DNA of 64,000 nt. It comes from Pseudonocardiaceae bacterium. GTDB taxonomy: Bacteria > Actinomycetota > Actinomycetes > Mycobacteriales > Pseudonocardiaceae. Under the pieces are notes generated by a model, which searched no databases, was not told the origin of the DNA, and saw only the letters and a program-made list of their open reading frames with translations. Shown in pieces: positions 11,801 to 24,967 of this stretch. The translations under genes were made by a program, and so were the position numbers. The DNA lies in the NCBI GenBank assembly GCA_050700355.1, contig JBOHHE010000057.1, positions 24,163-88,162 of the forward strand. Reading direction: 5' to 3'. Each line of letters opens with the position of its first letter. Within the stretch, counting starts at the first letter, position 1.

Positions 11801-12024
11801 GAACGTCGCTTCCCAGGCTACCTACGCAGCAGGTCGACCGGGTCTGACCAGGCATCGGCTGACGGCACTTGCCCGGTGGGCGATCGTAAGGTAACGATAT
11901 GTACATGCAGCGTCCCCTGCTCGAGCAGTTCTGGCCGAGTAGGCGCATGGCAGCCTTTGACGAGCTGTGTAGCAGGGCCGCGCGTCGGCGCATGGCCTGA
12001 GCCCGCCTCGCGCGGCCGCTCCCG

Positions 12025-12549
12025 GTGCCCGTCCGTATCACAAACACACCAGGAGTCTGCGTGTCCGTCACTGATGAACTACTCGCCAACAACTCCCGCT
12101 ACGTCGAGACCTTCGGTGGTGCATTGCCGCTGCCACCTGCCAAGGGCGTAGCTGTCGTCGCTTGCATGGATGCTCGGCTGGACGTTTACCGCATCCTCGG
12201 CCTGAATGAGGGCGAAGCGCACGTTATTCGTAACGCCGGCGGCGTGGTCACCGACGATGAGATCCGCTCGCTGGCGATCAGCCAGCGGCTGCTCGCCACG
12301 AAGGAGATCATCCTCATTCACCACACCGATTGCGGAATGCTCACCTTCACTGACGACCAGTTCAAGAAATCCATCCAGGACGAGCTCGGGATCAAGCCGA
12401 CGTGGTCCGCTGAAGCATTCCCGAACCTCGAAGAGGATGTCCAGCAGTCCATCGCTCGGATCAAGGCCAGCCCGTTCATCCCGAGGAAGGACGCCATCCG
12501 CGGCTTCGTCTTCGACATCGCGACCGGCAAGCTCAACGAGGTCATCTGA
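12025..12549 (+). CDS. beta-class carbonic anhydrase
   Basis: Zinc-ligand motifs CMDARL and HTDCGM. GTG start. Confidence 0.9.
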   Translation: MPVRITNTPGVCVSVTDELLANNSRYVETFGGALPLPPAKGVAVVACMDARLDVYRILGLNEGEAHVIRNAGGVVTDDEIRSLAISQRLLATKEIILIHHTDCGMLTFTDDQFKKSIQDELGIKPTWSAEAFPNLEEDVQQSIARIKASPFIPRKDAIRGFVFDIATGKLNEVI

Positions 12550-12608
12550 GCACTCCGAGGTTGAGTGCCCTTCAAGGACTACCAACCCACATCTAGGACG
12601 TCGCAAGC

Positions 12609-12646
12609 GGCAGCCCACCCCCTGGCGAGTCAGGGGGTGGGCTGCC
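12609..12646 (+). terminator. perfect 16-bp-stem hairpin downstream of the carbonic anhydrase gene
   Basis: ggcagcccaccccctg / gcgagt / cagggggtgggctgcc. There is no T-tract, as is common in actinomycetes. Confidence 0.5.
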
Positions 12647-12953
12647 GTCATGAGCAGTGACCCAACGACGGCCCAACCATCATGCCAGTAGAGTTCCCGG
12701 CTTCTCGACAGATCTGCGGCATCGTGGTCGGCGTCGGTCCGGACGCAGCATCTGGTGGATCAACCACTGGGTCGTCCACCCGAACGGTGGTCGCGTAGGT
12801 TGCGCTCCGCGCGTGTATCGAACCACCCTGCTACCCCGAAGCCTCCAACGTTCGGGATACTACTCGCCGATCCAGCTCGACCCCGCGTTGCGGCTACGAC
12901 TACGCTAGCGATAAGGACCACAAATATATCCACCTCGTCAAGAGGAGACTGCT

Positions 12954-13925
12954 GTGCTTCCTGTAATGATTCTATGCGGCGGCTTATCGTTTGAACGTGA
13001 AGTATCGCTATCATCAGGACGCCGAGCCTGCCAGGCGCTGAAAAGTGAGGGGGTTGATGCCCTCACCATCGACACAGATCAGCACCTCCTATTACGCCTA
13101 GAACGAGACCCACCTTCAGCGGTAATCAACTTGCTGCACGGTCAGCGTGGCGAAGACGGCGCAATTTCAGAAGTTCTTGAGATGGCCGCAGTACCCTACG
13201 TCGGGCCACAACCACATGCCGCTCGGCTCGCCTTTGACAAGCCGACAGCGAAGGAACTGGTACGCCGAGCCGGACTCCGAACACCGAATTTCTGTGTATT
13301 GCCCCTCGGTACCTTTCAAGAACTGGGCGCCGACGGAATAACTAGCGCGCTTGCCGCGAGATTCGGCCTTCCACTGGTCGTGAAGCCGGCCTGCGGCGGA
13401 TCCGCGCTCGGGGTCACCATTGTCCGCGAACGCCGAGATCTTCCGGCCGCCATGGTCCAATGCTTCGCTTATTCGGACACGGCATTGATAGAGCAGTATA
13501 TCGATGGAACCGAAATTGCAATAACAATTATCGAAGAAGCGACCGGCATCACCGCACTTCCAGTAGTAGAGATCGCCTACAGAACAAACCGCTGCGACTA
13601 CGAAGCTCGGTATACAGCCGGGCAGGTAGATTTCACCGTACCAAGTAACTTGTCCCCCGCTGTCCAAACTCGAGCCACCGATGCGGCCGTAGCGATACAC
13701 CAAGAGCTCCGGCTTCGTGACTTGTCACGGGTAGACATGATCGTCGATGCCTCGGGAACACCGAACTTTCTGGAGGTAACCTGTTGCCCGGGTCTGACCG
13801 AAACCAGCGTGGTGCCTATTGCAATCGAAGCAAGCGGGCGAACTCTCGGTGGAATCCTAACGAAGATTGTCGCCCGCGCAATGGGCAGGTTCAGCGCGCC
13901 CGAGCATGCCCTGGTTCATGAGTAA
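12954..13925 (+). CDS. D-alanine--D-alanine ligase family ATP-grasp enzyme (paralogue A)
   Basis: GTG start preceded by agaggaga. N-terminus ILCGGLSFEREVSLSSG and an ATP-grasp body. Lower GC than the backbone. Confidence 0.8.
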   Translation: MLPVMILCGGLSFEREVSLSSGRRACQALKSEGVDALTIDTDQHLLLRLERDPPSAVINLLHGQRGEDGAISEVLEMAAVPYVGPQPHAARLAFDKPTAKELVRRAGLRTPNFCVLPLGTFQELGADGITSALAARFGLPLVVKPACGGSALGVTIVRERRDLPAAMVQCFAYSDTALIEQYIDGTEIAITIIEEATGITALPVVEIAYRTNRCDYEARYTAGQVDFTVPSNLSPAVQTRATDAAVAIHQELRLRDLSRVDMIVDASGTPNFLEVTCCPGLTETSVVPIAIEASGRTLGGILTKIVARAMGRFSAPEHALVHE

Positions 13926-13942
13926 CTTCATCGTATGCGGGG

Positions 13943-15046
13943 CTACGCCAACTTCTTGGCGATGGCGCCAGCGGTGCGAAGAGCCAAGCCATCTGCGCCA
14001 GCGGTGGCCGCAGCATAGCTCGGATATTTGACAGCTTCCTCGAGCATATCATCCAGCAACGCTTCGTGCGTGACCGAAGACGCTCGCCACAGATAGAGCG
14101 ACATTGCCCCAGGAATTGTGTTGATCTCATTGACCCACAACTGGTCTCCATCCAGAAGGTAGTCTATCCGGGCGACACCCCGAACCTGAACGAGGGAAGA
14201 CACCGCCAAAGCGTAACGGCGTAGACGTTCTTCGATATCTGGAGCAAGTATGGCCGGCAGCTCGCGAGGAGCACCGGTCAAACCCCCGCCGCTCAGGTAC
14301 TTATCCTCATAAGTGTAGAACTCGGCAGCTGAATCACGGACCGGCCGTTCTATCTCGGACAGAGCCGGGGAGCCGTGCCCGCGGACAGAGATATTAAGGT
14401 CGATAGAATTCGGTAGATAGGGTTCGACCACCGCTCCCAACCGAAGGTGCGGAGAGCTGTCAAGCAAAGAAAGTGCTGTTTCGATTCCATCCACCACAGA
14501 TATGCCAATAGATGATCCACCATATCTCGGCTTTACCAGCCAGGGGGCAGGAAAATCAGGCGCCGGCCCGTCCTCTAAGAGCGCGAACCGCGGTAAAGTC
14601 GGTATCCCCGCGGCGGCCAAAACACCTCCGAAGGCCAACTTATCCATTCCTAGTGCTGCGGATCGTACCGTCGGGCCGGTATACTTCACGCCCGCGAGAT
14701 CGAGCACGCTTTGCAGGCGGCCGTCTTCTCCGGGGCCCCCGTGACAGCAGTTCACCGCAACGTCGAAGTGCAAATTTCGAAGCCGACCCAATGCTCGCCG
14801 CTCCGCGAACCCGTTGCCCATCCCGGTAACCAGCACTACGGCGCGGGAGTCCGAAGGTACTCCGTTTACGAATGCCTCCGCCTCTAAATCCGGCGCCACC
14901 AGATGCCAGTTTCCGCTCTTGGTCCAGTAGAGTGCCGCCACGTCGTGGCCGCCGCTGGAGAGCACCCGGCACACCTGCAAACCGGTGAGAATACTGACGT
15001 CGTGTTCCGGCGACGGACCTCCGAAGAGGACGCATGTACTAACCAC
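13943..15046 (-). CDS. D-alanine--D-alanine ligase family ATP-grasp enzyme (paralogue B)
   Basis: VLFGGPSPEHDVSILTG N-terminus and NEINTIPG C-terminal motif. Last gene of the minus-strand operon. Confidence 0.85.
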   Translation of the reverse strand: MVSTCVLFGGPSPEHDVSILTGLQVCRVLSSGGHDVAALYWTKSGNWHLVAPDLEAEAFVNGVPSDSRAVVLVTGMGNGFAERRALGRLRNLHFDVAVNCCHGGPGEDGRLQSVLDLAGVKYTGPTVRSAALGMDKLAFGGVLAAAGIPTLPRFALLEDGPAPDFPAPWLVKPRYGGSSIGISVVDGIETALSLLDSSPHLRLGAVVEPYLPNSIDLNISVRGHGSPALSEIERPVRDSAAEFYTYEDKYLSGGGLTGAPRELPAILAPDIEERLRRYALAVSSLVQVRGVARIDYLLDGDQLWVNEINTIPGAMSLYLWRASSVTHEALLDDMLEEAVKYPSYAAATAGADGLALRTAGAIAKKLA

Positions 15047-15074
15047 AGTCGCACGCCTTTCTGTTCACCTGGAC

Positions 15075-16601
15075 TCACGGATAGTGGTCCGGCAAATCAT
15101 TTTCGTACAGCACAACATCATTTTCGGTGAGGTTCTCACGAACCCATCGGACGGCGTCATCCCTGGTCGGCACCAACCGGACGGTCGCACTGCCACCTCG
15201 ACTACCGCTCCGCATCGCGGATAGATTGGTTCGCCCGACGATAAAGATATCGGTTGCATCCGTTGCCGCATTTCGGGCGAACCTCTCATTTTCCTTGTAC
15301 TGCTCATTTCCCAACTCTATCATCCCTGGTGAAACAACCACGCGGCGACCGCCGTTAGAAATCCGCGAGAGAAGCCTCAACGCGCTCGCCGCTCCGGCTG
15401 GATTCGAATTGTAAGTATCGTCGATGACTCGTACTCCATGGGATGTCGTCACAACCTGCTGACGATGAGCAGGGGTTGGTAAAGATTCCAGCCGATTCAG
15501 TATGTGCTCTATCGCAACATCAAGCGCCAAGGCCACCGAAATCGCCGCCGCAACATTGTTTGCGAATACTCCAGGATTCCGCACCACCCCGACCTGTTCA
15601 CCGGAAACATAGACGGCAAGTTGGCCATCAAATGGGACTACGGCGACATCATTACCGTCCTTGACGCTACCACAACGCATCACAGATTTGCCGGAGGCCA
15701 TCTTTTTAGCCATGCTTTTCAGATGGGGTGAATCGGTGCTCAATATGGCCAGATCGACCTTCTCCAGCAGTTCGGCCTTGGCTTCAGCTATGTTGTCCAA
15801 GGAGCCCATACGTTCCATGTGAACAGCATCAATAGCGGTAATCACACCAATGTTCGGCCGCAACCAGCCGCAGATGTCTCTGATTTCGCCTTTGCCATAA
15901 GTACCGACCTCGGCCACGAGCACTTCGGTACCTTCCGCCAGATGCTCGTTGATAGTTCGGCAAAGTCCGGCTGTGTTATTGAAACTTGCCGGACTTGCCA
16001 CAACTACGCGCACACCCGAGACCAGGTGCCTTACATACTCCTTGGTCGTGGTCTTTCCGTAGGAGCCGGTGATCGCAACAACTACTGGACCGACAGCTGT
16101 GAGCCGCTTGCTCGCTGCATCGACATAGCGCCGGGCGAGGCGGCTCTCAACGGGCCGTGTGATCACCAGGGCCAAATCCACGAAAACAGGGATCAGCACC
16201 GCTGAGAAAGCCAACGGGGCAACGCTGGTGAGAATTACTAAGCCAAGCACCGAGATAATTGCAACCATCGAGCCCGTGACCAGGGCGAGGAACTTGAGCC
16301 GTCGAGTCCAGACCAGGCGCGCCGAACGCCCTCGTACCGTGAGACCGAGTGGACCCAAGCCGAGTATTATTCCAGTAATACAGGCAGCCAGCGGAAACCA
16401 GGCCGATACGATGGCGCCAAGAACTGCACCGACAACCATTGCTATATTTATCGGACGGTGCAGCCACCAGCGCATGACGAATCGCGTGGTAGATCCAGGT
16501 ATGTAATGTTCCCGTTGGGCGATTCTCAGCCACCGTAAGAGGGCGAGCGCCGCGCCGGCCAAGGCGAGAACCACGGAGAAGACGATTATTGCCACAGTCA
16601 T
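15075..16601 (-). CDS. MurF-like Mur ligase with N-terminal multi-pass membrane domain
   Basis: P-loop ITGSYGKTTTKEY plus MurF-type DDTYNSNP and SPGMIELG motifs. The first ~165 aa form 4-5 hydrophobic helices where the UDP-binding domain would normally sit. Confidence 0.8.
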   Translation of the reverse strand: MTVAIIVFSVVLALAGAALALLRWLRIAQREHYIPGSTTRFVMRWWLHRPINIAMVVGAVLGAIVSAWFPLAACITGIILGLGPLGLTVRGRSARLVWTRRLKFLALVTGSMVAIISVLGLVILTSVAPLAFSAVLIPVFVDLALVITRPVESRLARRYVDAASKRLTAVGPVVVAITGSYGKTTTKEYVRHLVSGVRVVVASPASFNNTAGLCRTINEHLAEGTEVLVAEVGTYGKGEIRDICGWLRPNIGVITAIDAVHMERMGSLDNIAEAKAELLEKVDLAILSTDSPHLKSMAKKMASGKSVMRCGSVKDGNDVAVVPFDGQLAVYVSGEQVGVVRNPGVFANNVAAAISVALALDVAIEHILNRLESLPTPAHRQQVVTTSHGVRVIDDTYNSNPAGAASALRLLSRISNGGRRVVVSPGMIELGNEQYKENERFARNAATDATDIFIVGRTNLSAMRSGSRGGSATVRLVPTRDDAVRWVRENLTENDVVLYENDLPDHYP

Positions 16602-17380
16602 GTGTTACCCGGGCTTTCCAGCTTATCGATTGCGGCGCGAAGGTGTTCGGGTGCGGAAATGGGGAGCAGGTGTCCGATCTCCGGCAGAATCATGAGGTCG
16701 GCCCGCGAGATGATTTCTGCCGCCGTCTGCGCCATCTCTGGTGAAGCCTCCGCATCAGCGGAGCCCCAGACCATCTGCACAGGGCATCGAAGTTTGCGGA
16801 GGTCTTGTTCGTAATCTTCATTGACAACCCGGACCATGATAGAACGCATAACACCCTCGGCGGCCCGGTAGTCGGTCGATCCGTATCTATTTCGTACTCG
16901 ATTGAGCAGACCGTCGCTTACCAAGTTCCACCGACGGAGCGCACGGCCGAGCCGCACCGGCAGCGGAGGAGCTGGCCGAGCAGATTTTCGGCGCAACAAT
17001 GGCACCCCGGTGAGAACGAGCCCGCTTACACGATCCGGGAAATGAGCCCCCAGGCGGAGGGCGACCCTTCCGCCAAAGGAGTGACCCACTACAATCGGAG
17101 GATGCGGACATTCGTCTAGCACAGGAATGAGATGCTCGGCGTACTCCATGGTGCCCCAAATTTCACCGGGGGCGGGAGACAATCCGAATCCTGGCAGGTC
17201 GACCGCCAGGGCATCCAAGCCGGCAAGTGTCGCCGTGAAGTCTTGCCGATTCCGACCCCAACCGTGAAGTGCAATAACCGTAGGTGGCCCGGTACCGAAC
17301 CGCTCGGCGAATAACCGACCTGCCGAGTACGTGGTGAGCATCACTTTCTCCGTCGCGGGGTGACACACATTTATCTTCAC
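16598..17380 (-). CDS. alpha/beta-fold hydrolase
   Basis: HGWG oxyanion motif and GHSFGG nucleophile elbow. Its stop overlaps the MurF-like start by 4 nt. Confidence 0.8.
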   Translation of the reverse strand: MKINVCHPATEKVMLTTYSAGRLFAERFGTGPPTVIALHGWGRNRQDFTATLAGLDALAVDLPGFGLSPAPGEIWGTMEYAEHLIPVLDECPHPPIVVGHSFGGRVALRLGAHFPDRVSGLVLTGVPLLRRKSARPAPPLPVRLGRALRRWNLVSDGLLNRVRNRYGSTDYRAAEGVMRSIMVRVVNEDYEQDLRKLRCPVQMVWGSADAEASPEMAQTAAEIISRADLMILPEIGHLLPISAPEHLRAAIDKLESPGNT

Positions 17381-17549
17381 ACTGCGAAACTCAGCGGCCC
17401 ACGGCTCCTGTCCGGCCGTAGGCTGTGAAGTCTACTGGCCGCCACTCGGGCTACGCAGCCGGGCACAAGTGCGGCGACGGAGATCTTGGGGTTACTCACG
17501 ACGTACCACGTAGAGACGTTTGGTGAGGGTTGGTACATGAGGGCGATGA

Positions 17550-18491
17550 CTATTCTTGCAGGGCTCGGACCACCCGGGATGGTGCGGGCCTGCCCAGCTT
17601 CCCGGCCATCCACACGCTGGTCCGAACCAGAGCATCCAGATCTACTCCGTGCGCGATACCGAGCCCGTCCAACATCCACACCAGGTCCTCGGTGGCGAGA
17701 TTGCCGGTAGCCGATTCGGCATAGGGGCAACCGCCCAGTCCACCGGCGGAGGCATCCACACAAGTCACTCCGGCACGCAGGGCGGTGAGCGTGTTGGATA
17801 GGGCCTGACCGTAGGTGTCGTGGAAGTGCACGGCGAGTACATCAGCCCCGACACCAGCCCGGCGAAACCCGGAAAGCAGCGCGGCGACATGGCCCGGAGT
17901 GGCCACCCCGATGGTGTCCCCCAGCGAAAGCTCCGAACACCCCATGTCCAGCAGCCTGCGACCGACGGCGACGACCTGATGTACCGGCACAGCACCCTCC
18001 CATGGATCACCGAAGCACATCGAGAGGTATCCCCGCACGGCGAGCCCGGCAGCCCGAGCCCGGGCCACCACCGGGAAGAGCATCACGAACTGCTCGTCCA
18101 GACCCCGATTGAGGTTGCGCTGGGCGAAGCTCTCGGTGGCCGAGGCAAAGACCGCGATCTCGGCGATGCCGGCCGCCAGCGCCCGGTCCAACCCGCGCTC
18201 GTTGGGCACCAGCACGGGGTAGCGCACCCCCTCTCGGCGCACCAGCAACTGGAGCAACTCCGCGGCGTCGGCCAGTTGCGGCACCCAGCGTGGATGCACG
18301 AAGCTGGTGGCCTCCAAGACCGTCAACCCAGCCCCGGCCAGCCGGTCCAGAAATTCGGCCTTGACCTCGACAGGCACCAGCGAGGTCTCGTTCTGCAAGC
18401 CGTCGCGAGCCCCGACCTCCCAGATCCGCACCCGCTCGGGCAGCCCGTCGCTGCGGTGGAGGTGGGGCAGTCCGGTCGGTCTGGCCGCCAT
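17550..18491 (-). CDS. hydroxymethylglutaryl-CoA lyase
   Basis: EVGARDGLQNE motif and a DRE-TIM fold pattern through to ...GGCPYA. Confidence 0.9.
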   Translation of the reverse strand: MAARPTGLPHLHRSDGLPERVRIWEVGARDGLQNETSLVPVEVKAEFLDRLAGAGLTVLEATSFVHPRWVPQLADAAELLQLLVRREGVRYPVLVPNERGLDRALAAGIAEIAVFASATESFAQRNLNRGLDEQFVMLFPVVARARAAGLAVRGYLSMCFGDPWEGAVPVHQVVAVGRRLLDMGCSELSLGDTIGVATPGHVAALLSGFRRAGVGADVLAVHFHDTYGQALSNTLTALRAGVTCVDASAGGLGGCPYAESATGNLATEDLVWMLDGLGIAHGVDLDALVRTSVWMAGKLGRPAPSRVVRALQE

Positions 18492-18527
18492 CCCGTTAGC
18501 CTGTCACACCTCGCTGCCGGTCAGGTC

Positions 18528-19034
18528 TCAGTGCCGGTCAGCCACGTCGGATTCGCCCGGATCCAGGTCGTATTGAAGCAGTGAATGCACCCGCTCGACC
18601 TGTGGAATGTCGTCGAACTCCAGCGGTTCGTCGGAGGCCGACTCAATGCTCAGCGTGCCGCAACCCAGCAGTCGCTCGACGACGGTGTACCGGAACTGCA
18701 CGCTGTTGATCCGGTGGACCGGGATATCGATGCCGCTGCGCGACAGGATGCCCTCCCGGACCAGCACCCGCCTGGTGGTGAGCACGAAATGCGTGGTGCG
18801 CCAGCGCAGCAGCGGCACCAACGTCAACCACACCGCTCCGGCACCGCCAAGGCCTACCAGCACGATCCAGGCATAGAGCTCCCAGGACTGCCCGGCGGCC
18901 AGCGCGGCGAGATAGGCGCACAGAGCCACGATGAGCAGGAAGGTCAGCACCGGCACAACCAGCATCTTCCAATGTGGGTGCTTATGGATCACTACCCGCT
19001 CGTCGGATCTCAACAGCTCATCCGGGTACGCCAC
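18528..19034 (-). CDS. membrane protein with bacterial PH (bPH_2) domain
   Basis: Two TM helices followed by the pattern THFVLTTRRVLVREGILSR...I. The slot is syntenic with Rv3278c (from memory). Confidence 0.75.
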   Translation of the reverse strand: MAYPDELLRSDERVVIHKHPHWKMLVVPVLTFLLIVALCAYLAALAAGQSWELYAWIVLVGLGGAGAVWLTLVPLLRWRTTHFVLTTRRVLVREGILSRSGIDIPVHRINSVQFRYTVVERLLGCGTLSIESASDEPLEFDDIPQVERVHSLLQYDLDPGESDVADRH

Positions 19035-24142: not shown

Positions 24143-24967
24143 TCAGGGCAATCTCCCAACACCCCCGAACTCATACACCGGAGTAGGCGCACCGAGGCGG
24201 GTGGGTCCGGGCCGCCACAGCGAACAAGAGACCACCCCCGGATCCAGGAGCTCCAGGCGATCGAAGAAACGGGTCAGCTCCTGGCGGTCGCGGAAGACCA
24301 CCGGCGGCGTTCCACCGCCCTCGTTCCACTGTCGCACGACCTCACCCATGACCTCAGCGTCCACTTCTGTGGTGGGGTGGGAAATCGCCAGGTGGCTGCC
24401 CGAGGGTAGGGCATCAAGAAGCCGGTTCACGATGGCGTGCGCCTGGTCTGTGTCCATGATGTGGTTGAGGATTCCCAGCAGCATGAGTCCCACGGGTTGA
24501 CTGAAGTCCAGCGTGCGGGCGGCCTTTCGCAGAATCGTGTCAGGGTCACGCAGGTCGGCGAAGACATAGTCGGTGACGCCGGCGGGAGTGCTGGTGAGCA
24601 GGGCGCGAGCGTGCGCCATGATCAGCGGATCGTTGTCGACATAGACGATGCGGCACTCCGGTGCGGTCATCTGGGCGACTTCGTGAGTGTTGCTGGCGGT
24701 GGGCAGGCCAGTTCCGATATCGAGGAACTGACGGATCCCCACCTCGCCTGCCAGGTGCCGGACAGAGCGGACCAGAAAACCTCGGACGGCGCGCGCAGCG
24801 TCGCGGAAACCCGGCGCGATAGCAAGTATCTGGTCACCGGCCTCACGGTCGATCGGGTAGTTGTCCTTGCCACCCAATAGGTAATCCCAAAAGCGAGCCG
24901 AGTGCGCCACACTGGTATCGATATCCGGAAGCTGTCCCTGGTCGGACGCGGTTGACCTGTCAGTCAC
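24143..24967 (-). CDS. SAM-dependent methyltransferase (DUF574 family)
   Basis: ARFWDYLLGGKDNYPIDRE and FLDIGTGLPT motifs. Confidence 0.8.
   Translation of the reverse strand: MTDRSTASDQGQLPDIDTSVAHSARFWDYLLGGKDNYPIDREAGDQILAIAPGFRDAARAVRGFLVRSVRHLAGEVGIRQFLDIGTGLPTASNTHEVAQMTAPECRIVYVDNDPLIMAHARALLTSTPAGVTDYVFADLRDPDTILRKAARTLDFSQPVGLMLLGILNHIMDTDQAHAIVNRLLDALPSGSHLAISHPTTEVDAEVMGEVVRQWNEGGGTPPVVFRDRQELTRFFDRLELLDPGVVSCSLWRPGPTRLGAPTPVYEFGGVGRLP

Follow-up and report, generated by a model that had tools for sequence, protein, structure and literature searches.

A 64,000-nt stretch of contig JBOHHE010000057.1 from a Pseudonocardiaceae bacterium (positions 24,163 to 88,162, hereafter the window) carries a low-GC island of four genes. 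Three of them form an operon encoding an alpha/beta-fold hydrolase (Hyd), a MurF-like ligase anchored in the membrane (MurFL) and a divergent ligase of the Ddl type (Ddl2), and the fourth, Ddl1, encodes another Ddl-fold protein. Conserved gene linkage and the positions of the operon in other genomes make it moderately probable, in our judgement, that the island represents an accessory copy, gained by horizontal transfer, of a widespread and undescribed peptidoglycan-precursor module, in which MurFL would add a dipeptide made by Ddl2 to the peptide stem. The MurF and Ddl steps of cell-wall synthesis are regarded as universal and cytoplasmic, and both are antibiotic targets. Here, a MurF-type enzyme is embedded in the membrane, lacks the nucleotide-binding domain and is strictly coupled to a hydrolase and to a Ddl whose substrate pocket is altered, and among abundant lineages of sea, freshwater and soil this trio is found in housekeeping positions. 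In the literature, we found no account of a transmembrane MurF-like ligase or of a Hyd-MurFL-Ddl2 operon.

The four open reading frames (ORFs) have exactly the coordinates and strands proposed in a first-pass annotation, which a model had made from the sequence alone, and the families proposed there were recovered with Pfam and NCBIfam (two Ddl-fold proteins, one Mur ligase and one alpha/beta hydrolase). The spacing was also as described, with a 4-nt overlap between Hyd and MurFL and a 28-nt gap between MurFL and Ddl2. The genes and the membrane domain of MurFL are as follows:

16598-17380, minus strand: Hyd, 260 amino acids, alpha/beta-fold serine hydrolase, first gene of the operon (Abhydrolase_1/6, Hydrolase_4)
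15075-16601, minus strand: MurFL, 508 amino acids, MurF-like ATP-dependent amide ligase (Mur_ligase_M/C)
16152-16601, minus strand: membrane domain of MurFL, residues 1-150, with five hydrophobic helices and two Arg/Trp-rich loops
13943-15046, minus strand: Ddl2, 367 amino acids, divergent ATP-grasp ligase of the DdlA lineage, third gene of the operon (Dala_Dala_lig_N/C)
12954-13925, plus strand: Ddl1, 323 amino acids, DdlB-type ligase-like protein converging on Ddl2 (Dala_Dala_lig_N/C)

Homologues of MurFL are numerous, 1861 proteins matching at E ≤1e-10 among the 8000 candidates scored. Separate scans gave at least 584 loci in species-representative genomes and at least 553 in Joint Genome Institute (JGI) metagenomes. 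The named genomes are overwhelmingly metagenome-assembled genomes (MAGs) of Acidimicrobiia; among the rest, one locus belongs to Limnocylindrales (Chloroflexota), and some further loci include a gene of the DdlB type, with its nearest named relatives in Nitriliruptorales. The complete Acidimicrobiia chromosomes OZ242183.1, OZ251535.1, NZ_OZ244781.1 and OZ253443.1 are among the carriers of the trio. Linkage was counted over 165 MurFL loci, the denominators being the assessable cases. Hyd was found directly upstream of MurFL on the same strand in 142/142 loci. For Ddl2, the position immediately downstream was taken in 128 of 137 loci, and in another 7 the gene stood farther along in the same orientation (135/137); the complete Hyd-MurFL-Ddl2 trio was present in 119 of 121. 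The check proposed in the first-pass annotation, co-occurrence of the four genes across genomes, thus came out positive for the trio and negative for Ddl1, which is restricted to the clade of the window. The core unit is Hyd-MurFL-Ddl2, with Ddl1 outside the core. A membrane sensor kinase of GAF-HisKA-HATPase architecture is encoded divergently just 5' of the trio in locus L001 (5310-7121) and in about 24 other Acidimicrobiia loci; it may reflect lineage synteny or be a regulator.

Among Mur ligases, MurF is the nearest relative of MurFL in both sequence and fold. The murF model TIGR01143 gave 202 bits, under its cut-off of 288.6, and aligned only over model positions 63-402, while the murD, murC and murE models gave 73, 57 and 38 bits, respectively. 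A BLASTP alignment with Escherichia coli MurF begins at MurF residue 70. An AlphaFold model of MurFL, built on an alignment of 72 sequences, had a predicted local distance difference test score (pLDDT) of 91.3 and a predicted template modelling score (pTM) of 0.86, and its top Foldseek matches were MurF structures over about 360 columns (4qf5, E 1.6e-20). The P-loop GSYGKT and residues E231, H261, K275, R380, D394 and N400 are invariant in the 72 homologues. Because these are the Mur-ligase catalytic residues, MurFL is predicted to be catalytically active. MurFL thus shares with MurF the C-terminal domain and a central ATP-binding domain containing the P-loop, the Mg ligands and the conserved Lys, both with their catalytic residues. 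Published work attributes binding of the incoming amino acid or dipeptide to the Mur-ligase C-terminal domain (PMC10214165), and the likeness of MurFL to MurF runs through this domain. MurFL also resembles MurF in being associated, here within one operon, with a Ddl-type ligase able to supply a dipeptide. It differs from MurF in its below-cut-off score, in an invariant VLYENDLPDHYP at the C-terminus, in its obligatory coupling to an alpha/beta hydrolase, in having neither murE nor mraY as a neighbour and, above all, in lacking the N-terminal uridine diphosphate (UDP)-binding domain, in place of which residues 1-150 form a five-helix membrane domain.

That MurFL is membrane-anchored had been proposed from its sequence, and both a hydropathy scan and the AlphaFold model agree on a helical N-terminus of about 150 residues. 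Besides the five hydrophobic helices, the domain has two cytoplasmic loops, assigned from hydropathy and loop charges, that contain six Arg/Lys each. These loops bear the motifs RWLRxAQREHY..RFxxRWW and GPxGLxxRGRxxxLxWTRRL and are the most conserved part of the family, R26, Q29, R30, E31, H32, Y33, F41, W45, P84, G86, G91, T99 and R101 being invariant in the 72 homologues. Modelled alone, the membrane domain had a pLDDT of 92.5 and found no neighbour in the PDB (best Foldseek E about 1). In a search of 1.84 billion representative proteins, it occurred only at the N-terminus of MurFL-type proteins. Since the membrane domain occupies the place of the UDP-binding domain, its conserved loops, rich in basic and aromatic residues, are likely to recognise that portion of the acceptor which bears the (pyro)phosphate. 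The earlier view of a self-contained system is upheld by these data: the module is conserved and includes a membrane-anchored MurF-like ligase without a UDP-binding domain.

Public annotations name MurFL a "Mur ligase family protein" or MurF. The source gene call starts 42 codons late (466 amino acids), and other public calls give 454 and 419 amino acids. We preferred the 508-residue ORF because conserved N-terminal motifs lie upstream of the public start. Compared with proteins of 507-508 residues, the late starts drop the first helix and the RWLRxAQREHY motif, hiding the membrane domain from annotation. Three apparent hydrolase-MurFL fusions (P0270, P0306 and P0380) were considered as Rosetta-stone evidence and rejected as frameshift artefacts because of Arg/Ala/Pro-rich out-of-frame stretches in their sequences.

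Ddl2 has the Ddl fold and an altered second-substrate site. It scored under every NCBIfam Ddl or Van cut-off (199 against 245.65 bits), as did its Acidimicrobiia orthologue (192 bits), and the Van ligase models gave 66-159 bits against cut-offs of 495-775. The comparison of omega loops and active sites recommended in the first-pass annotation was carried out in E. coli DdlB numbering. Ddl2 retains E15, H63, K97, K144, S150, S151, K215, Y216, R255, D257, E270, N272 and G276, and departs from the full Ddl catalytic set (E15, S150, K215, Y216, R255, D257, E270, N272, S281) by S281Y. Position 281 is Tyr in 131 of about 146 Ddl2 orthologues and mostly His, Arg or Phe in the remainder, against Ser in every other Ddl-type sequence examined; this Ser contacts the carboxylate of the second D-Ala. 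In addition, the omega loop of Ddl2 is longer and four residues are deleted after L282. Lys215 together with Tyr216 is the signature of dipeptide, not depsipeptide, formation, and its retention argues for a dipeptide product and against a depsipeptide.

Hyd has an intact catalytic triad (S101/D209/H237), which, along with the lid motif YGSxDYRAAxGxMR, is at least 93% conserved in 125 orthologues. In about 80% of loci, its stop codon either overlaps the MurFL start or lies immediately next to it. All its NCBIfam matches were far under cut-off, and its best PDB match was the esterase-like Rv0045c (E 1e-13).

What the module is for is suggested by its position in other genomes, where the informative contexts all indicate the part of peptidoglycan precursor synthesis concerned with D-Ala-D-Ala. 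In Acidimicrobiia, the gene order is Hyd-MurFL-Ddl2, AsnC (minus strand), a cold-shock gene, rpmB (minus strand), FakA/YloV, RecG, RsmD, CoaD and PlsX. Synteny with the ddlA slot was tested on the Nonomuraea gerenzanensis chromosome (filed in PLSDB as a plasmid), in which a DdlA-type ligase is followed by AsnC (77% identical to the Acidimicrobiia AsnC), rpmB (minus strand), FakA, RecG and CoaD in the same order. Ddl2 is only 26-30% identical to the Nonomuraea DdlA despite the common genomic slot. A plasmid-borne RecG in Dietzia was uninformative for this test and was dropped. Actinobacterial ddlA classically has gpsA as its neighbour on the other side, and in locus L172 Ddl2 lies directly 3' of gpsA. 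Judged by this synteny, Ddl2 occupies the housekeeping ddlA slot in Acidimicrobiia and relatives. On the Limnocylindrales contig (from the MAG encoding HWH37980.1), the trio is part of a division and cell-wall (dcw) cluster ordered mraW-ftsI-mraY-murD-ftsW-murG-murB-Hyd-MurFL-Ddl2-ftsQ-ftsA; it takes the usual position of ddl, and neither murE nor murF lies between ftsI and mraY. In locus L013, genes for MurL, a MurD-type ligase and PgeF are found within a few kb of the trio. As a separate observation on these neighbourhoods, a single protein of 909 amino acids in L001 (13145-15874) joins RecG to a methyltransferase domain of the RsmD type, the two being separate genes in other loci.

A further context concerns the dipeptide itself. 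In 8 loci (about 5% overall), the trio is accompanied by an M15 dipeptidase, predicted to be cytosolic, that has the complete set of VanX motifs (DxxR..Q, PPHxTGGAVDLTL, EWWHWSYGD), which is immediately upstream and co-directional in 5 of them. In L087, which belongs to the window's own clade, this dipeptidase is extra cargo of the island along with a membrane protein without assigned function, both of equally low GC. The dipeptidase is paired with a partner protein of about 350-530 amino acids in three loci (L087, 5594-7335; L013, 11639-13908; L110, 3008-4734) and stands alone in five more; the partner has an N-terminal membrane segment and no match in Pfam, NCBIfam or the PDB. The lack of a Van or peptidoglycan context noted in the first-pass annotation is thus a property of the window only and does not extend to the ddlA slot, the dcw cluster, the MurD/MurL/PgeF neighbourhood or the VanX-type dipeptidases elsewhere, and it is because of the ddlA-slot, dcw and VanX-type contexts that we tie the module to peptidoglycan. 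In the window, no Van or dcw gene was found within about 8 kb on either side of the cluster; vanH/vanT, vanX/vanXY and vanRS were specifically missing over 8 kb, and vanY is likewise not in the window. The neighbouring genes encode a cytochrome P450 (p450), carbonic anhydrase, 3-hydroxy-3-methylglutaryl-CoA (HMG-CoA) lyase, a bPH_2 membrane protein, BirA and AccD5, with no cell-wall gene among them.

Ddl1 and Ddl2 had been described as paralogues. Both are Ddl-fold proteins sharing most catalytic residues with DdlA and DdlB; they belong, however, to different lineages, and Ddl1 is neither part of the universal core nor in possession of a complete metal site. Ddl1 is of a DdlB-type lineage of about 317-residue proteins, its best PDB match is DdlB, and it passes NF002378 (262 against 243 bits) and falls under TIGR01205 (223 against 245.65 bits). 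Among the loci surveyed, its true orthologues occur only in L002, L003, L004, L086, L087 and L089. While Ddl2 differs from DdlA and DdlB in the features of the substrate pocket and omega loop given above, Ddl1 differs from them by N272T and K215R. The Mg2+ ligand N272 is Thr in 8/8 of the closest Ddl1 relatives, against Asn in all 110 readable more distant ones. A separate lineage formed by L148, L171 and L172, in which a DdlB-type gene stands between Ddl2 and Hyd-MurFL, has Ser or Ala in 6/6, against Asp in 114/114 relatives, and the DdlB-type copy in L114 has Thr at the third Mg2+ ligand. The third Mg2+ ligand is therefore lost in all DdlB-type copies relocated beside MurFL, in two independent lineages. 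This repeated loss suggests that the MurFL-linked DdlB-type protein is not an ordinary D-Ala-D-Ala ligase; it could have been recruited as a pseudo-enzyme, or its chemistry could have changed. In Nonomuraea, Kribbella and Nitriliruptorales, relatives of Ddl1 that are not linked to MurFL (about 55% identity) have an aminotransferase gene beside them, close to parAB/oriC. More generally, Actinomycetes and Nitriliruptorales have, directly 3' of a class I/II aminotransferase gene, a conserved second DdlB-type ligase gene (L084, 8001-8957; L085, 8001-8951; L173, 6340-7299), near trxAB, cwlM, parAB and oriC and apart from the gpsA-linked DdlA-type gene.

The mechanism that we favour runs as follows. 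Ddl2, of DdlA-lineage descent and with a remodelled second-substrate pocket, would make D-Ala-D-X, that is, D-Ala-D-Ala or a close variant. MurFL, held in the membrane, would work at its cytoplasmic face on a muramyl-tripeptide, either UDP-linked or undecaprenyl-pyrophosphate-linked, activating the free carboxylate of the stem and then joining the D-Ala-D-X dipeptide to it. Hyd, translationally coupled to MurFL, would be an obligatory partner, for which we infer editing or turnover of the precursor or the dipeptide. Ddl1, with its Mg2+ ligand lost, would act as an altered or non-canonical partner rather than as a second ordinary D-Ala-D-Ala ligase. Several observations weigh against this proposal. 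With a score under the murF cut-off and no UDP-binding domain, MurFL possibly uses a different acceptor. The Tyr of Ddl2 in place of an otherwise universal Ser281 may mean a product other than D-Ala-D-Ala. The synthesis of D-Ala-D-Ala next to a VanX-type dipeptidase would be futile. Lastly, Hyd has no informative characterised relative, Rv0045c being the best match. Because of the futility just mentioned, the VanX-like gene, together with the altered Ser281, favours a dipeptide other than plain D-Ala-D-Ala.

In a sub-variant of this mechanism, which we hold to be considerably less probable, the module reprogrammes the stem terminus in a Van-like manner. Ddl2 would then make a dipeptide that is not D-Ala-D-Ala, MurFL would be specialised to install it, and a hydrolytic partner, the VanX-like dipeptidase or else perhaps Hyd, would remove the normal dipeptide or precursor. 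The outcome would be an altered stem terminus and tolerance to glycopeptides, D-cycloserine or similar compounds. In its favour are the VanX-motif dipeptidases, including the one carried as island cargo in L087, and the substitution of S281 by Tyr, His, Arg or Phe in nearly all Ddl2 members. Moreover, murF-like genes are known beside van clusters in Actinobacteria (PMC8698665). Such clusters, made up of vanHAX and a murF-like gene, likewise combine a Ddl-family ligase with a MurF-like ligase and are mobile in actinomycetes. They differ from the island in several respects: the window has no vanH, vanT, vanX, vanRS or vanY, Ddl2 belongs to no Van ligase family and matches Van ligase models no better than generic Ddl ones, and MurFL is embedded in the membrane. 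Against the Van-like reading stand the missing van genes, the model scores of Ddl2, its retained Lys215 and Tyr216, the presence of the dipeptidase in so few loci and the housekeeping slots, not inducible resistance cassettes, that the trio occupies in its native hosts and in most hosts overall.

The favoured mechanism leaves room for a more radical form, which we put forward tentatively and regard as rather unlikely as a whole. Acidimicrobiia, Limnocylindria and related lineages would have no canonical soluble MurF step; the MurFL loops would bind undecaprenyl-pyrophosphate-linked muramyl-tripeptide (lipid I/II-tripeptide), and the stem would be completed at the membrane, with a co-evolved Ddl2 giving the dipeptide and Hyd editing. 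The island of the window would be a portable version of this system. MurT is a Mur-family ligase without a canonical UDP-binding N-terminal domain that acts on a lipid-linked precursor (lipid II) with a dedicated partner enzyme. MurT/GatD is therefore a precedent for reading the acceptor of MurFL as lipid-linked. The resemblance ends there: the MurT models gave only 25 bits against 800, MurFL is an integral membrane protein and MurF-like, and no GatD or GATase neighbour was present in any locus examined. Should the acceptor be lipid-linked, or the dipeptide be other than D-Ala-D-Ala, the textbook order of the pathway would fail for these groups. In actinomycetes, the mobile low-GC form might also offer a new way to alter stem termini and gain drug tolerance.

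An acceptor outside peptidoglycan is a possibility to which we assign a distinctly low likelihood. The first-pass annotation had imagined MurFL acting on something other than the canonical nucleotide precursor, and at the membrane one could envisage an envelope polymer, a lipid with a carboxyl group or a peptide destined for secretion. Mur-family amide ligases do exist outside the UDP-MurNAc pathway: PgsB/CapB are membrane-associated members of the family that build polymers, and cyanophycin synthetase combines ATP-grasp and Mur-ligase modules. A membrane domain without structural relatives in place of the UDP-binding domain, the scores of MurFL and Ddl2 under the curated cut-offs, the precedent of PgsB/CapB and the lack of cell-wall context in the window itself are all compatible with such an acceptor. 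Against it, the informative contexts elsewhere are all peptidoglycan or cell division, so that the proposal of an unrelated polymer or secreted peptide is not supported. No conserved polymer-export or lipid-synthesis partner (such as PgsC/PgsA) was found beside the trio, and PgsB gave no NCBIfam match at E ≤0.001. The analogy drawn earlier with cyanophycin synthetase also fails, as the models gave 28 bits against cut-offs of 850-877 and matched only part of the central domain, and in the island the ATP-grasp and Mur modules are separate proteins; the MurT models are similarly far under their cut-off.

The foreign origin of the island is apparent from its composition. The features at its left side and its extent are as follows:

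12025-12549, plus strand: carbonic anhydrase gene, left neighbour of the island
12608-12647: perfect 17-bp hairpin from a repeat scan, putative terminator of the carbonic anhydrase gene
12650-17549: low-GC island, approximate limits, between the terminator of the carbonic anhydrase gene and the stop codon of the HMG-CoA lyase gene

The GC dip reported earlier was confirmed, 1-kb segments between 13 and 17 kb having a GC content of 0.54-0.59 against about 0.65-0.70 elsewhere. The island genes have a GC content of 0.56-0.60 and a GC content at third codon positions (GC3) of 0.56-0.63, compared with a GC3 of 0.78-0.87 in the flanking genes (p450, carbonic anhydrase, HMG-CoA lyase, bPH, birA, accD5). 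Nine TTA codons occur in the window island, against 0-1 per gene in three neighbours checked. The window clade comprises 7 loci in at least four insertion contexts, all carrying Ddl1 as fourth gene, and MurFL identity is 62-86% in the loci with true Ddl1 orthologues. The insertion point in the window lies between the HMG-CoA lyase and carbonic anhydrase genes. L002, from a MAG labelled Pseudonocardiales (GCA_052390495.1), has the same flanks, including the birA/accD5 block; the flanks differ for L003 and L004, for L086 and for L087. The contrast holds throughout the 7 loci, with a GC content of 54-56% for the island and 64-68% for its surroundings, whereas the GC content of the Acidimicrobiia trio matches that of its flanks (median difference +0.016). 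On this compositional evidence, high-GC actinomycetes acquired the module from a lower-GC donor. The horizontal acquisition suspected at the outset is thus well founded in the compositional contrast, the variety of flanking contexts and the native-looking Acidimicrobiia copies. As a side observation, the island has stayed at 54-56% GC in these high-GC hosts despite divergence down to 62% protein identity, with no amelioration visible.

Members of the order Pseudonocardiales carry a canonical dcw murF and a gpsA-linked ddlA. Because the island is foreign in composition, and in view of the lineage of the host, this genome is expected to carry a canonical murF and ddl as well. It is improbable that the island genes are the only murF and ddl of this genome and thus housekeeping. 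Such a role is suggested for native hosts by the ddlA/ddl slot of Ddl2 and by the Limnocylindrales dcw cluster, where the trio may indeed be housekeeping given that murF is missing between ftsI and mraY. In the window, by contrast, foreign composition and rare codons set the genes apart as an island, inserted into a birA/accD5 block that is common to the Pseudonocardiales MAG, and related hosts carry the island at other sites. Least probable of all, and very much so, is a neutral or decaying remnant of transfer without current function: foreign codon usage and the lost metal ligand of Ddl1 would fit it, but the four ORFs are intact, the family-invariant residues are all kept in the window proteins, and the gene order and the Thr of Ddl1 are conserved across the clade at 62-92% protein identity, which indicates purifying selection.

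The edges of the island were also inspected. The hairpin that had been placed at its left boundary exists (arms 12608-12624 and 12631-12647, 17 nt, 100% complementary, 6-nt loop). Because it lies 60 nt past the carbonic anhydrase stop, it is probably the terminator of that gene rather than a boundary element; the hairpin found at the equivalent place in L002 is a different one. At both edges there is an imperfect inverted repeat of 18 nt (12684-12701 and 17422-17439), which was rejected as a pair of terminal repeats and put down to a chance match, because it is present neither in the closest relative, L002, nor in the other island copies. No terminal repeats or integrase were found for the island, and no MurFL was found among PLSDB plasmids, in which the only matches were canonical MurF at ≤33% identity.

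Within the island, no RNA family was detected by Rfam across 12000-18600, and promoter and terminator scans gave match numbers not above those of shuffled sequence. The stop codons of the convergent genes Ddl1 and Ddl2 are 17 nt apart (13926-13942), with no terminator-like structure between them, and the two transcripts may overlap as antisense. Finally, a motif containing GACTAnGCTAGC is located at 12893-12922, 35-65 nt 5' of the Ddl1 start. It is partly conserved at matching sites in L002, L089, L086 and L087, with a tandem duplicate in L086, and may be a promoter or operator.

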